From Octopus vulgaris (lineage: Eukaryota), in contig OX597818.1 in the NCBI GenBank assembly GCA_951406725.2, positions 64,728,001 to 64,792,000 on the forward strand: 64,000 nt of DNA. Reading direction: 5' to 3'. Below the pieces are notes generated by a model. It saw only the letters and a list, made by a program, of their open reading frames with translations. It did not search any database and was not told the origin of the DNA. A program made the position numbers and the translations under genes. The first letter of the stretch is position 1, and each line of letters begins with the position of its first letter. Below, piece after piece: positions 9,425 to 63,152 of this stretch.

Positions 9425-9833
9425 TCTCTCTCTTTTACTCTCTTACTTGTTTCAGTTATTTGACTGCGGCCATGCTGGAACACCGCCTTTTAGTCGAGCA
9501 AATCGACCCCGGGACTTATTCTTTGTAAGCCCAGTTTTTATTCTATCGGTCTCTTTTGCCGAACCGCTAAGTGACGGGGACGTAAACACACCAGCATCGG
9601 CTGTCAAGCAATGCCAGAGGGACAAACACAGACACATAAACATATACATACACATACATACATATATGCGACAGGCTTCTTTCAGTTTCCGTCTACCAAA
9701 TCCACTCACAAGGCATTGGTCGGCCCGAGGCTATAGCAGAAAACTCTTGCCCAAGATGCCACGCAGTGGGACTGAACCCAGAACCATGTGGTTGGTAGGC
9801 AAGCTACTTACCACACAGCCACTCCTGCGCCTA
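9425..9833 (-). mobile_element. SINE family B, full length
   Basis: High similarity to the reverse complement of 55931-56340; tRNA-like head, CCTTGGGCAAG CORE-like motif, internal microsatellite, AAAAGAGT-type tail. Confidence 0.92.
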
Positions 9834-10599
9834 TAAAAGGAAAGTTGACCAAGGCGGAATTTGAACGTAACAATGGGAGACATCCCGCTAAGTGTTTCAG
9901 CCAGCGTGCTAACGAGTCTGCCAGCTCGCTGCCACTGAAGACGATTCACATATACATTATCATATTCACACTGAGCAATATGGTTACTGGAGTGTAGAGA
10001 GAGAAAGAGGAGGAGAAAGAGAATAAGACTGAGAAAATGAGAAAGAGAAAATAAGAGAGAGAGAGAGAGAGAGACGAGAGAAGCATTAAAACAAGAGATT
10101 GTTCTCCTGCCAAATAAATCAGCGTTGAATTAGTAATGGCAAAAAATTACAAAGCAAACAAGTCTGAGCCCAAGACGATTCATACCTCCGTTGTACTGAA
10201 CGTCTCGCTGAGCAAAATCACTTGCTAAGCAGAGTCTTCTGCTGAGGAGAATATGACACGTTACTTATCCCGATTTCCCCCGCATCCAGGTTAAATTTGC
10301 ATTACTTCATCTAGGCGTCCAGACAATGAACCAATCTCTGAATTCTAAGAACAACAGACTCAATGATTTAGCAACACTATTCTTACACTTTCAAGTCTGG
10401 GATGGAATGCAGTTGTGATCTATTTGGATTTCAGACATTCTGAATTGCTCTGTAAAGCATTCTCATCTTCAGTAAATTTAGCAAAGTACGCTCCATACCA
10501 ATTTTGTAAAGGTGGGCATATCTCTGTTTCACCACCTGAGACAGAACAGATTCAACCTGAACGCTGAAGTTAATACCCCAATAGTTAGTGTCTATATTA

Positions 10600-20157: not shown

Positions 20158-22249
20158 ACAATAATTTTAGACAATATACTGTGAAAATATTTTGGCATAC
20201 TCAATAAACATATATACTTATACAAAACATTCTTTGAATATGTAATAGTCATATACCCTTATATAAACGCTCGTTGACCGAATAAGCATATACCATTACA
20301 TACGCGCTCGTGGAATAGAGAGTAATCGTATATCCTTACACTAACACATGTTAAATGCTGAATAAGCATATATACTTACATATACACGAGTTCAATGATT
20401 TCGTATTTCCTTCATGTTACATAACTTCTGATTTTGTGAGGATTTATTGGGAAACACTGATCGTGTGTATGCAGTAACGTAAAACCATATATGTACACAT
20501 ACATTTTTGTGTCTTCGTATGTGCAGGGTTCTTTTATGGTACTCAAGATAAAGAAACGGTTACTTAATTTTCGTGCACATGCATGATGGTTGTACGCCAA
20601 AAGATTAAAAATATATTGGCAGCATCACGTATGGAAGCCGATAACTGCATTTATTGAAAATTTCGTATCTGAAGGCGCTCCTATGCTTAAATTTATATGG
20701 GATATTATCTAAGGTAAGGAAATTGTGAGTAAAGCTAACGTGGTGATTGCAGAAGGTTAGTTATTGAACATATTTAGCCCTTAAATATTAAAATCCATGT
20801 GTTTAGGCAGTTGTAAATGTTTTATAAAGTAATAAATATGTGTGCCCATTGGCTGCGAAAACCTGCATATGGTTGAACCTTTGATGTATTCATAGTCCCC
20901 ATTCCTTAGATTTCAGGTGTGGTTGATTAGTGACATGAAATTTCTCATATCATGTTCTTATCATAATCACATTACCAAGGTTCCGTGAGTATAATAATTT
21001 CCTTTTAATAAAACTTCCAACATACCTATGTACTGCATATGCTCTGCTTATTTTCGTGTATCTGATTTGGTATGTTGGATGTAAAATCAGTTTTATAGAC
21101 AATTGATACCATGTTCGATTTGTGTCAATAGCGGCTATTTATTTTATCTTCCTGTGTGAACAGCATAGACTGCCATGTTTAATAGACGCTTTGGTAATGA
21201 TACATGGTGGAAGTTCAAATTTAGAAGAATTTCACAGAAACGCCGAGTGAAAATGTTCTTATATCTATAATTAAATCGGCAATGCTATTCTAACATGGCC
21301 AGGAAGGTTGCCAGCCTTGAATAATACTTGCAAATATGATTGCAACATGCATAGTATTTCTAGAACTATTCCGTTATCGAACATTGAGTTCGAGTTGTAA
21401 GAAGCTTTCTTCTTGATGCAGTATTTTACAGAGACCAGGTTACTTTAAGGAATGATTCTATTCAAGTGATGAGGAAATATTAGAGCTTCTACTAACATGA
21501 ATTCATCAGTTTAATAATGTTTTCTCATTGTAATTCTTTAAGCTGGATTCTGTTAATGAATGTTTGCAATTTCAGTTCTGATTTCTAAAAATTTTGTAAG
21601 AGAGACTCTCCAGGTTTGCTGAACCGCCCACTTTTACTCAGCTTCAGTTCAATTAGTTGCTACGATAATATTCTATCACTGACGTCTGAAAATGCCTATG
21701 AGATATTTCTCTAAGAATCTAGAATACAGTCACCAGAGTTGTGATACGATTAATCTGCTGACAAGATACAAGCTGATAGTGGAATTAGCTAACATAGATT
21801 TCAGCCGGTCGTATTTATACGGTCTTATAAGATTGCAGATATTGCGCTGGTGTACAAGTTTATCGCGATCATAAATATTTGTGTGTGCTATGGTTTCTTG
21901 ATTATCGTTAATATTTTCTTGAAAATCAATGTTTTATATGCATTCTGGATTATCTCAATATCCAATTCAACAGAACCGACGTATCCAGTGATATATTTCA
22001 ATGCTTCGACTTGCAGCGGTTTGAATAATGTGCAATACAAACCCCCAATATGGGGGCTATCGGAAACTGACTGAAACTAGAATTATTTCTACTAACGAAC
22101 CAGTTGCCTAATCATTACTGTTAACTAAATGATGAAGTGTCATGTTTTGGTCCTAATTAAAATTAACAAACTGTATATAATTAAAAGTAAATTAATTTTA
22201 CGATTATAACTTTAAATATTCAACAGAAAACTCTTACAATTTTCAAGAG

Positions 22250-22420
22250 TACATTATTTACATAATTTACCGTTAAAGGGATATTTGTCCTCATCTTGTT
22301 TTTATGTTAACACAATGTTTCGGCTGATATACACCCCAGACGTCATCAGGGCATATGGCGTAGTGGTTAAGAGCGCGAGCAACTAACCCCAAGTTTCCGA
22401 GTTCGATTCCAGGCAGTGAA

Positions 22421-22463
<43 letters not shown>

Positions 22464-22666
22464 TATTAATAACATCGAAAATCGAAAAATACTTTAGGAA
22501 TGAGAACCAAGGTTCGAAATTTACCCAAGACACCTGATGATTGCTGGAGGGTGTATCAGCCAAAACGTTAACAACAAACTAGATGAGGACAAATATCCAT
22601 CAAATGTAAATAATGAAAATAATATAAATAATGTACTTAATTCCTTCTCTCTTAAATATAGTACTG
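22250..22666 (+). mobile_element. Composite element: inverted HHR segment + tRNA-like head + (AAT)n + hammerhead-like tail
   Basis: A-box TGGCGTAGTGG and B-box GAGTTCGATTCC (22349-22422); (AAT)n 22424-22472; GACAC-CTGATGA..GCTG..CAGC..AAACGTT (22529-22570); 22250-22350 is the inverse of 22533-22635. Confidence 0.8.
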
Positions 22667-22829
22667 AAGTTCCAATGGCGTTACAAATAACGCACATACA
22701 TGATTCATAGAATTTCGGGATAATATAACAGGCACCACATCGGTTAATACGACTAGACTTCCAGTAGATCCGTTTAACGGAACTACTCATGAATTTAACG
22801 TGTAAATGCAACTGAAAGTTGCACCATCA

Positions 22830-23025
22830 ATACAGTCCTCAAGGGGAAGCAGCGTGACAGATAATTTTTGACAAGGCTGCCCCTTTGAAATACAGTTACC
22901 ACAAGTAGCATCAGACTGGATTGGAGCAGCGTGAACTATAGTGTCTAGCGCAAGAATAAAACACGCTGCCGGGAATCGAACTCATGATGGTGAGCCGAAT
23001 GCCCTTAACAATTGAGCCTCGAGGC
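22830..23025 (-). mobile_element. Diverged tRNA-derived SINE (family D, CORE/Meta-like)
   Basis: Minus-strand GAGTTCGATTCCCGG B-box followed by a TGT..TCTTG.GC.AG.CACT motif; related copy at 34520-34733. Confidence 0.55.
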
Positions 23026-24796: not shown

Positions 24797-25887
24797 AATG
24801 ATCATTTACAAAGATGACTCTGACGTTATTAACGTTGACGTTATTAACATATTCAGAAACAACAATGACAGCGTAATGTAAATGTTTTCTCTTCATCCAT
24901 TATCATTACTTTTAAAAACAAAATAATATAATAATAAATTGGTAAAATGATCAGGAAGAAGCTTTCTTGACAGACAGACACCAAAGCCATCTACGATATA
25001 TTGATGTCGCCTTTAATGGTATGTGAAGACCTTTAGACAGCAATATAGCGTTCCTTGGCGCATTCACTTGCATTGTTTCTCCCTAGTCGAATTAGCAGGG
25101 CACAATAATGGGCGCCATGTAATGTTCATAGTTTCCCTCATTTGGATTGGTGTTCATGCATATTGTCTCTGTTTCTCTTTCAAAAATTTGACAAAATGTT
25201 GTTCCTCTACTTCTCTTTCAAACATTTCCTTTTGGCAAGAATTTATTCCTGAAGTGTGGCTTCATTCTTTTTTTCAACACCTTACTCTTGAAAATCTACC
25301 AAATTCATACAATTAGAACCGAATTCTTTCTTGTGTTTGTATCAGTGTAAATAATTGAAGATTTGTGCGTAGAAAAGCATGACTCTAATGACACAAGTTT
25401 GCACAAAAGCTTGAATAAGCGTAGTGATTGTTACATAGTTCTGTGAATTGTATAGATGCAAGTCATTGACCGAGCACCTCCAGCATTGTATTCGCATCCA
25501 CTTGTGCATCTATATAAAGGAGTTACACCGAAGTTTATTCGTGTCGCTTTTGTACCAATTTTTGTTTGTACGCTCATGTGAGATACTAACACCTATTTCC
25601 ACTGCTTCGCTGCGATCATATTCACACGCATCAGTCTTGTTGATCTTATTAGCGAAAAAGTGATTTTCTTTAGATTTAAAGCGGAAATTTCGAAATATCG
25701 CGAAATGTTTAAATAAGATATATCAAAGATAAATACGATGATACCTCGTGGAGAAGTGTCCATCAACGTGATTCTTGCACCTCATAAATTACAAATCGAA
25801 CAGTGTTAATAGCATATATAACGAAATAATATTTAATAATTCTGAGATTATACCTCGATTTCCCTTTTTACATATACATCTTTTGTT

Positions 25888-26153
25888 TGTGTCTGGGGAG
25901 AGTCATTTAAATGTTATGCCTTATTATGTAACACATTCACCGGTAAAATTTCCACTTTTTTCTTATCTTTATTGTCCTAAAATTTTCGTTGCGTCTTGCA
26001 ACCTTTTCAGTTGTTTTGACTTTTGAAAATGTTGCAAGATGCAACGAATATTCTAGAACAATTTTACCGGTGAATGTGTTACATAATAAGACACAAAAAC
26101 AAAATGACTCTCCCCAGACACAATACAATATGCTTCAACACACGAACTCATAT
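25888..26153. mobile_element. Palindromic foldback element with HHR-like motifs near the centre (copy 1)
   Basis: ~120-bp inverted arms (TGTGTCTGGGGAGAGTCAT...ATGACTCTCCCCAGACACA) plus a one-sided extension; second copy at 60190-60485. Confidence 0.85.
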
Positions 26154-26849
26154 AAAGAATCTTACAAACCAAATCCCAAACCGAAATATACGTTTTTGTT
26201 TCCCATAATGTCATCAAAGTTTTGTTACTCTTCAGTACATTTTTGAATAATTGTAAAAGGGTTGTATATAATATTGTATAACGCCTTACCTTATGGTTAT
26301 CACAATTTCCACAATAAAATATGAGTGCGTGTGTCTGATTAGTTAAGTGGTCAAATATTTAAGTAGTTAACTAATTGCAATAAAAGCGTTTGCCTCTGTG
26401 ACGAAAGTGCGTGCCTTTGTTATTAGCATAATGGCACTTCTAAGATGAAAGAAAATCTAAGCTATCTCTATTTAAGATAATTTCCAACAATTCCGGTTTC
26501 ATTTTCTTACAAGACGTAACTGGTTTGTTTTGAAGTATTTTTCGATTATCAACAAATCTAGAGGGAGTTTTTATCAAATAATTTCTTTAATTGCTGGGAT
26601 TATATCAGTTAATCGAATTTGTTTCAGTCAGCTTCCTTACATAATATTCCTAATGTGAAGCTAGAAACCAATCCTCTATCCCCACCTCTCTCTCTCTCTT
26701 TTTGTCTATGTGCCTATATGTGTGTGTGTGTGTGTGTATAGCTGTCTACCTGTCTGTCTGTATGTATTAAGAATAAATTCACACACACATATACATATAA
26801 CGAATATATATGTATATATATACACACACATACACACACACATATATGT

Positions 26850-59537: not shown

Positions 59538-60189
59538 TCAAGTCTACCTTTAATTCTTGGTCGTTGTTTCTGATTAAACTGTGGACAGTCTACGAAGCCA
59601 GCTAATTTCTATAAAAATAGATATCAATCATGGACTATACTAATACCTATATTAGATTAACTATATTATATTATCATGCCAAACTGTCGATTAACTCTTA
59701 CTTTTTCATAGATTAACCGAGACTTCTCCTTCGGCTTTTCGCTATTCACGAATTTAATCCAAAGTATTTGCATATTACGTCCTCACATTAACGCGCTTTA
59801 GGTACATCAGCATGTTAACACTTTCGACGAGGCATTTCATTTTGTCGCTGCACAATAACTCAACCCGTAATACATTTCATTGAAAATTTTGTAAAATTCT
59901 ATATTTTCTTCATCTATAATTCCTCTCGTACAAAGAATGTACCACATCCTCTCTGCAAGATAAATTTCTTAATAGGCTCTAAGTTTGGTACAGGAGAGCA
60001 GTTCTAACGAAGATGTGAAGTCGATTATATTGACTCACATGCTTAAGTAATACATACTTCAGCAATCTTAAAAGCATGAATTACAAAACCGACCTCGGCA
60101 CCATTTGAACTCAGAACGTAAAAGTGAGAAATATTTGCAACTACTTAATGAATGTATTTCGTTTTTGGATTTGGTTGGCAAGATTATTT

Positions 60190-60485
60190 ATATGAGTTCG
60201 TGTGTTGAAGCATATTCTGCTGTGTCTGGGGAAAGTCATTTTCTTTTTGTGCCTTATAATGTAACACACTCACCGGTAAAATTTCCACTTTTTTATTATT
60301 TTTATTTTCCTAAAAGTTTTGCTGCGTCTTGCAACGTTTTCAACAGTCATGACTATTGAAATTTTTGCAAGATGTAACGAAAGTTTTAGGAAAATAAAAA
60401 TAAGAAAAAAGTGGAAATTTTACCGGTGTGTGTGTTAAATGATAAGGTACAGAAAGAAAGTGACTCTCCCCAGACACAACAGAAT
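60190..60485. mobile_element. Palindromic foldback element with HHR-like motifs near the centre (copy 2)
   Basis: ~135-bp arms around CAGTCATGACTA; same family as 25888-26153 with the unique extension on the opposite side. Confidence 0.85.
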
Positions 60486-62533: not shown

Positions 62534-62593
<60 letters not shown>

Positions 62594-63058
62594 GGGTGTG
62601 TGTGTGATTGTGTATAGAAGAATATATTAATAAAAAGAATTCCAACCTTGTCTGATTTTCACGTTTTATTTACAATCTTATAATGATATATTATAAGATA
62701 ATATATTATAATTGAATAAAATAAAATGAAATAGTAGAATGTTAAATATTCATTCTGATTGAACTAGTACTTTCATGCATTGAATTCTGCAATCTTCGGG
62801 TTCATGTAGTAGTGTTGACAGTCATGCTTCGACTGTCAACACTACTACATGAACCCGAAGATTGCAGAATTCAATGCATGAAAGTACTAGTTCAATCAGA
62901 ATGAATATTTAACATTCTACTATTTCATTTTATTTTATTCAATTATAATATATTATCTTATAATATATCATTATAAGATTGTAAATAAAACGTGAAAATC
63001 AGACAAGGTTGGAATTCTTTTTATTAATATATTCTTCTATACACAATCACACACACCC
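62594..63058. repeat. Near-perfect long palindrome (~230-bp arms, 7-nt spacer) with mirrored HHR motifs
   Basis: 62594-62823 is the inverse of 62831-63058 apart from one TG unit; spacer ATGCTTC; bounded by (TA)n. Confidence 0.95.
62850..62894 (+). ncRNA. Minimal hammerhead-like motif, CCGAAGA core (mirror copy 62760-62804 on minus)
   Basis: TGAAC-CCGAAGA-TTGCA-GAATTCAA-TGCAT-GAAA-GTAC-TA-GTTCA; helix I 5 bp, palindromic AGUACU helix III, CUA triplet. Confidence 0.7.
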
Positions 63059-63061
63059 ATA

Positions 63062-63095
<34 letters not shown>

Positions 63096-63111
63096 TATGT
63101 GTATATATATA

Positions 63112-63152
<41 letters not shown>

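Follow-up and report, generated by a model that had tools for sequence, protein, structure and literature searches.

To our knowledge, autonomous retrotransposons are taken to be transcribed by RNA polymerase II (Pol II), or as Pol I read-through. Among the coding Penelope-like elements (PLEs), the anole's Poseidon_Ac (PMC11167929) and the Adineta element Pen2a_Av (PMC3846280) have, in the accessible portions of those papers, a single ORF of ~835-840 aa with an RT plus a GIY-YIG at the C-terminus, a pLTR that includes the first codons, a hammerhead that overlaps the ORF start, two 3' ends 30 nt apart, an inverted pLTR, a short TSD and a 5' palindrome, and the octopus PLE that we describe here resembles them in each of these traits. 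It differs from them, as far as they are described there, in that its pLTR opens with a tRNA-derived head carrying A and B boxes and followed by (AAT)n, its ORF starts 35 nt before the hammerhead AUG, its monomer is free of TTTT, and its solo pLTR pairs outnumber coding copies by about 10 to 1.

Three further systems share single features with the octopus element, again judged from the accessible parts of the sources. Metazoan PLEs carry minimal type I hammerheads (Cervera and de la Pena 2014, PMC4209133), described in pairs on opposite strands 100-700 bp apart; these have a short helix I and a long helix II, an extra base between 9 and 10.1, a G10.1-C11.1 pair and a palindromic 15.2-16.2, and the octopus ribozyme, as predicted from its sequence, does not differ from them. 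The Schistosoma Sm-alpha/Sj-alpha repeats (PMC6765202) are likewise short, with a Pol III-type promoter and then a hammerhead, but they are non-coding and arranged head-to-tail, with canonical hammerheads, whereas the octopus repeat is the terminal repeat of a coding PLE and mostly head-to-head. The TRIMp3 families Cassandra, Helenus and Ajax (Kojima 2024, PMC10886601) likewise have, within a terminal repeat, a Pol III promoter derived from a small RNA, which may have come with a SINE insertion; they are, however, non-autonomous LTR elements of <1.3 kb whose autonomous partners, according to the same source, must use Pol II, while in octopus the autonomous element carries the boxes. The insertion pattern and the ribozyme are already known as PLE features (PMC4209133, accessible part). 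What would be unusual is a tRNA-type promoter in an autonomous PLE, and the family may match a named octopus SINE. No tRNA-headed PLE or PLE-mobilised SINE was found in a search confined to the open literature, and the accessible portions of two octopus repeat papers (PMC13282606, PMC8967140) make no mention of the family.

The window copy and its parent element

The window is the whole 64,000-nt stretch of Octopus vulgaris DNA that was analysed. In our judgement the locus under study is probably a pLTR of an autonomous Penelope element that inserted head-to-head as a solo copy, and its tRNA-derived A and B boxes likely form a Pol III promoter. The preliminary description had reported a tRNA-like head with A and B boxes, (AAT)n, a hammerhead and an inverted arm, and direct reading of the letters recovers all of them (Table 1). 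It had also held that each hammerhead copy is mutated, and both are indeed broken in the window, while the family consensus is intact: in the forward copy G12 has become A, stem II is damaged and 5 nt are deleted; in the inverted one G16.2 has become A and helix I is missing its 5' strand. At this locus ARAGORN reported no tRNA and Rfam no hammerhead; the decayed minimal motif lies below their reach.

Table 1. Features of the element in the window (window positions)
Feature	Positions	Strand	Remarks
tRNA-derived head	22349..22424	+	5' part of the autonomous-PLE pLTR; 95% to consensus positions 2557-2632
A box	22356..22366	+	exact against the Pol III type 2 consensus in PMC8969392
B box	22400..22410	+	one mismatch against the PMC8969392 consensus; 33 nt past the A box
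(AAT)n tract with short local duplication	22425..22480	+	
pLTR body	22481..22636	+	from 22500 onward, first codons of the PLE ORF
Minimal type I hammerhead	22529..22569	+	within the ORF; decayed in the window copy
30-nt PLE tail	22637..22666	+	forward (right) arm only
Inverted second arm	22249..22350	-	5'-truncated, tail-free; consensus body 55 to about 150
Decayed hammerhead of inverted arm	22309-22350	-	
Possible decayed TSD, left copy	22238..22246	.	matches the right copy at 7/9 positions; missed by the automated search
Possible decayed TSD, right copy	22667..22675	.	

The two arms, joined by a 2-nt overlap at 22349-22350, are 77% identical over 101 columns (E 2e-15), and identity to the family consensus is 95% for the head, 89% for the forward body and 86% for the inverted arm. 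The length of (AAT)n varies in the family, with a median of 33 nt over 143 arms. The second GGTTCGAAAT, at 22511, lies in codons 4-7 of the PLE ORF, without a separate A box. The window copy is a single decayed solo insertion.

Other repeats lie nearby. An unrelated tRNA-headed SINE with its own B box (window 22667-23025, minus strand) abuts the right end of the element, and the PLE copy seems to have inserted near the 3' end of that SINE. The window also holds a 573-bp near-perfect palindrome (62540-63112, 96.5%), smaller palindromic repeats at 25883-26188 and 60155-60485, and repeats of other dispersed families that recur several times along this stretch (2530-2794, 9431-9838), the first of which begins with a tRNA-like head.

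We are highly confident that the whole unit (head, (AAT)n and hammerhead body) is the pLTR of an autonomous PLE. The consensus monomer, 2,632 nt (2.63 kb) long at a coverage of at least 14, runs from the head through (AAT)n and the hammerhead-bearing body into an ORF for RT and GIY-YIG. This ORF is open for 834 codons (one consensus homopolymer having been set, before the ORF call, to the length seen in 13/13 real copies), begins within the body, at its position 22 (window 22500), includes the hammerhead and has its stop 33 nt upstream of the next head. The DNA upstream of the head that is common to two head loci translates as a GIY-YIG-type C-terminus, and the head follows the ORF stop in 30/30 stop-anchored loci, five of which are duplicated segments; upstream walking showed the body continuing into the ORF in 11 of these 30. 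Partial tandems with a pLTR holding the ORF start were found at L181, L438, L159 and L183. A 9-nt unit of the body is present in one, two or three copies in 88/89 cases, so that the frame is kept.

A real open frame of 461 aa matches RVT_1 (E 6e-10) as well as 84 proteins, and all but one of these (83) have domain sets of the PLE type. The closest of them, P0003 (57% identity), has the N-terminal peptide encoded by the hammerhead in common with the octopus ORF, and an Anolis protein that is 37% identical to the PLE ORF is probably Poseidon_Ac or a close relative of it. Pfam made no GIY-YIG call on the real C-terminal piece, and the motif at the PLE C-terminus is one that we take to be GIY-YIG from the alignment. 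Judged by its single ORF, its PLE RT, its alignment with PLE proteins over the full length and this C-terminal GIY-YIG, the element is an EN+ PLE of the Penelope/Poseidon type. The PLE fragment beside L049 was considered as parent and rejected, since it belongs to a different family (~30% protein identity), and it served as a control. A second PLE family (L187-L216) has a Cys-rich motif before GIY-YIG, which we take to be Neptune-like; three of its loci (L201-L203) form part of a 4,035-bp tandem array on C9.

Family size, ribozyme and insertion pattern

A DNA search of the genome (G000) gave 4,252 candidates, of which 40 were scored. Exact-motif counts in the same genome were 5,415 for the hammerhead and 2,720 for the head (23-mer and 24-mer), and 579 for the ORF stop plus spacer; a degenerate pattern for the body-to-ORF junction occurred 101 times. 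The reversed-sequence controls of all four motifs had 0 occurrences, and the abundance is therefore not due to chance. Scaled by exact-match rates of 39/175 and 21/77 (the head-motif calibration, 4/53, was too noisy and was left out), the family comprises ~24,000 arms, ~2,100 of them ORF-linked, so that short arms exceed ORF-linked arms by ~10 to 1. Long copies diverge from the consensus by a median of 5.6% (n=66), which would correspond to roughly 16 million years if the octopus rate quoted in the accessible part of PMC13282606 applies. An older sub-family, represented by two copies, too few for a consensus, lies 12-15% from the family consensus (L446, in which the head follows the ORF, and L331). 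The first 3 Mb of contig C1 contain 29 exact hammerhead motifs against ~6 expected from the genome mean, a possible enrichment near the contig end.

The consensus hammerhead has the full core, a helix I of 5 bp, a helix II of 6 bp, an ACGU palindrome and a GUU site, which bears out its proposed assignment to the PLE type. With the core, helices I and II, the palindromic helix III and an NUH site all present in the sequence, it is by structure a minimal type I hammerhead. Across copies, 92% of 216 cells are paired; covariation was not above that of shuffles (37 of 500), as expected because the copies are decayed descendants of one master. The cut site holds 8/81 truncated 5' ends (nominal P 0.016), but another interval of the same kind nearby holds 11.

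The insertion signature was analysed in 72 head-to-head pairs, a few of which may be counted twice. The 30-nt tail is found on exactly one arm in 66/72 pairs, on neither in 5 and on both in 1, and a TSD of at least 10 nt (lengths 10-19 bp) flanks 48/66 pairs compared to 5% of shuffled pairs. Paired arms have 37 non-CpG derived alleles in common, against 9.7 expected and at most 21 in 1,000 shuffles; both arms of one insertion come from a common source. The view that the 5' inversion is a PLE insertion signature is thus upheld across the family by the head-to-head arms, the one-arm tail and the TSDs. The same pattern is reported for Pen2a_Av (31-bp tail, inverted pLTR, 9-bp TSD) in the accessible part of PMC3846280, and the description of PLE insertions in that of PMC8557442 agrees with it. 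For Poseidon_Ac, the accessible text of PMC11167929 reports two internal priming sites and nicking of both strands in vitro, hammerhead cleavage not being needed there.

Some copies are rearranged. Short tandem derivatives at eight loci (L417, L429, L443, L250, L482, L486, L491 and L504) fuse a 5' fragment of the ORF to the head at position -6, often with extra A residues at the junction, and their structure suggests template jumps or circular RNA templates; L443 has the same junction on both arms. L427 consists of three tandem units, each of body 40-175 plus 81 nt of ORF, without a head.

The 5' boundary, the polymerase and the solo copies

The 5' ends were scored in 90 head-anchored arms, the first 90 of the 100 head-motif matches listed. 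Of these, 52 end in a 12-nt span at the head (-8..+4), in 21 the truncation falls within the head itself, 5 end at -20..-44, and 12/90 read >110 nt on into the upstream ORF. A 5-bp palindrome spans -7..+5, and because it covers the start many of the inverted 5' junctions are blurred; 5' palindromes are known in other pLTRs, e.g. in Adineta (PMC3846280, accessible part). The ORF-to-head junctions free of microhomology (n=5) start at G(-6) after extra A residues in four cases and at -7 in one; a later set of junctions was chosen so as to start at -6 and therefore carries no weight as a test of this position. The ORF-bearing copies L159, L183, L435 and L436 start at the same place as the other arms, and two ORF-bearing copies read through from the upstream ORF.

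The A box lies 13 nt downstream of G(-6) and the B box 33 nt after the A box; PMC8969392 gives the same A/B consensus and places a SINE start 10-15 nt upstream of that box. Both boxes fit the consensus at the correct spacing, while the stems of the cloverleaf are degenerate and the acceptor stem is imperfect. This arrangement makes it likely that the boxes serve as a Pol III promoter, and we lean towards a Pol III start at the head. No parent tRNA was found among 30 tRNA loci of few isotypes, where the best matches (Ala, Thr, Arg, Cys) reached 44-47/74, and the heads of other SINEs scored no better as a source. An A plus B box was present in 0/35 relatives with downstream DNA, a set in which two ends are doubtful and many come from one record series.

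TTTT runs act as Pol III terminators. The 2,632-nt monomer contains no TTTT and no GGGG, with 30 AAAA and 8 CCCC. The absence of TTTT has a P of 0.029 by synonymous shuffle and 0.0016 under a third-position weighted null, and of 0.01, 0.06 and 0.24 under Markov nulls of order 0-2. The second PLE family of the same genome has 6 TTTT runs in 3,050 nt. Raw copies have 0.49 TTTT per kb compared to 3.75 in the older control family, near the 0.43 that simulated decay of a run-free master predicts, and 79 metagenome relatives average 4.1 (2.2 in the 29 of like T content). A TTTT-free ORF was found in 2/60 relatives of at least 1.5 kb, L337 and L340, neither with an A/B box; L337, the closest metagenome relative, is TTTT-free over its 1.9 kb ORF and has a T-rich UTR with several runs, whereas the UTR of the octopus PLE is TTTT-free too. 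As a modest test, this depletion suggests Pol III reading, and that Pol III reads through the whole ORF is a tentative proposal.

Alternatively, Pol II might transcribe the same PLE, using the TATA where the upstream ORF ends, with the head a relic of a captured SINE or tRNA that has lost its promoter role; we consider this unlikely. Pol II also fits at this point, given a TATAA 28 nt upstream of G(-6) and an Inr-like TCACT at -19; the TATAA overlaps the ORF stop codon and is therefore confined to ORF-linked copies. With a cap, translation would pose no problem; an uncapped Pol III RNA would still have to be translated, a point that counts against the Pol III reading. Known PLE promoters are Pol II-like in the accessible text of PMC2377424 and PMC3846280, that of Drosophila Penelope being a Pol II-type internal promoter (PMC2377424), and L337 and L340 show that TTTT-free ORFs exist without A/B boxes. 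However, both boxes match the consensus at the correct spacing despite the degenerate stems, the start falls inside the 10-15 nt quoted for SINEs (PMC8969392), and the TTTT-free UTR sets the octopus PLE apart from L337. A TATA near -30 is also used by Pol III genes.

The preliminary description had gone further and proposed a Pol III-transcribed SINE with a borrowed PLE tail, parasitising a separate PLE. Its Pol III part remains plausible; the borrowed tail does not stand. Head and tail do co-occur, with the body downstream at 77/90 head-anchored loci, and an autonomous PLE sharing the tail, for which it had suggested a search, exists (the 834-aa RT and GIY-YIG element), but this PLE itself carries the head (30/30 stop-anchored loci). 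The head belongs to the autonomous element, and therefore the unit is not a chimera of a head and a borrowed tail. It resembles a SINE in that a head of tRNA origin, with A and B boxes, lies near its 5' end. In place of a LINE-derived 3' tail with poly(A) or a simple repeat, its 3' ends are two fixed sites inside the PLE ORF, 30 nt apart, and an Sm-alpha-type element is rejected in turn, the parent coding for protein and the pairs being mainly head-to-head, not non-coding and head-to-tail.

It is very improbable that the short copies form an independent SINE lineage, with solo copies as Pol III templates and the PLE mobilising them in trans. The ~10 to 1 excess of short arms, the retention of both boxes in solo copies and the action in trans of rotifer pLTRs (PMC3846280, accessible part) would agree with such a lineage, as would one deletion junction common to two loci (L482 and L483) and two alleles somewhat commoner in solo arms, head9 (13/81 vs 3/63) and body60 (19/83 vs 7/65). 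The common junction and the two alleles indicate that minor non-autonomous spread occurred. Nevertheless, the head sits in the autonomous element, solo copies lack the upstream TATA, and the consensus of 87 solo arms is identical to that of 88 ORF-linked arms, with no diagnostic site. Sharing of derived non-CpG alleles per kb shows no excess among solo copies (solo-solo 1.8, ORF-ORF 2.0, between classes 1.9), and the number of 9-nt units does not differ (P 0.54); the few low P values in this comparison reflect sampling on exact patterns. That the sharp 5' boundary is a site of RNase P processing at the tRNA-like domain or of palindrome fold-back in a longer tandem transcript, and not a start, is scarcely credible: 23/90 arms end at +1..+4, the palindrome spans -7..+5, and palindromes mark Adineta pLTR 5' ends (PMC3846280, accessible part), but 29/90 arms retain 1-8 leader bases, the microhomology-free junctions start at -6 and not at +1, and the acceptor stem is imperfect.

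Proposed mechanism and significance

Under the reading we prefer, an autonomous pLTR with a Pol III promoter, transcription would start at a G located six bases upstream of the head, in copies where the ORF end and its TATA at -28 still precede it, and we infer from the sequence that Pol III may initiate at G(-6) and read through the ORF. The PLE protein would nick both strands, 10-15 bp apart, and cDNA would be primed at two internal sites near the ORF start, as with Poseidon_Ac in vitro; by analogy with that element, we infer the double nick and the two-site priming in octopus as well, which would therefore give one arm per nick. Most products would be short, SINE-looking pLTR pairs because the priming sites are only 250-300 nt from the RNA 5' end, and long copies would need the second pLTR of a tandem transcript. 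The boldest form of the idea, an autonomous coding element with a captured tRNA promoter whose whole 2.6-kb unit is read by Pol III, all TTTT having been lost, is a possibility that we entertain without favouring it.

With one tail per insertion in 66/72 pairs and a common source for both arms, the family backs, on a large genomic sample, the two-site priming that Poseidon_Ac shows in vitro. Annotation pipelines would likely file its ~24,000 arms as a SINE, and therefore some SINE counts for this octopus genome may be counts of PLE repeats. A coding PLE with A and B boxes at its start would test the Pol II rule directly, and it raises the question of how an uncapped RNA is translated. If the boldest form holds true, the element would throw off tens of thousands of SINE-looking terminal repeats as by-products, and it would offer a snapshot of a ribozyme-bearing SINE, such as Sm-alpha, arising from a PLE.
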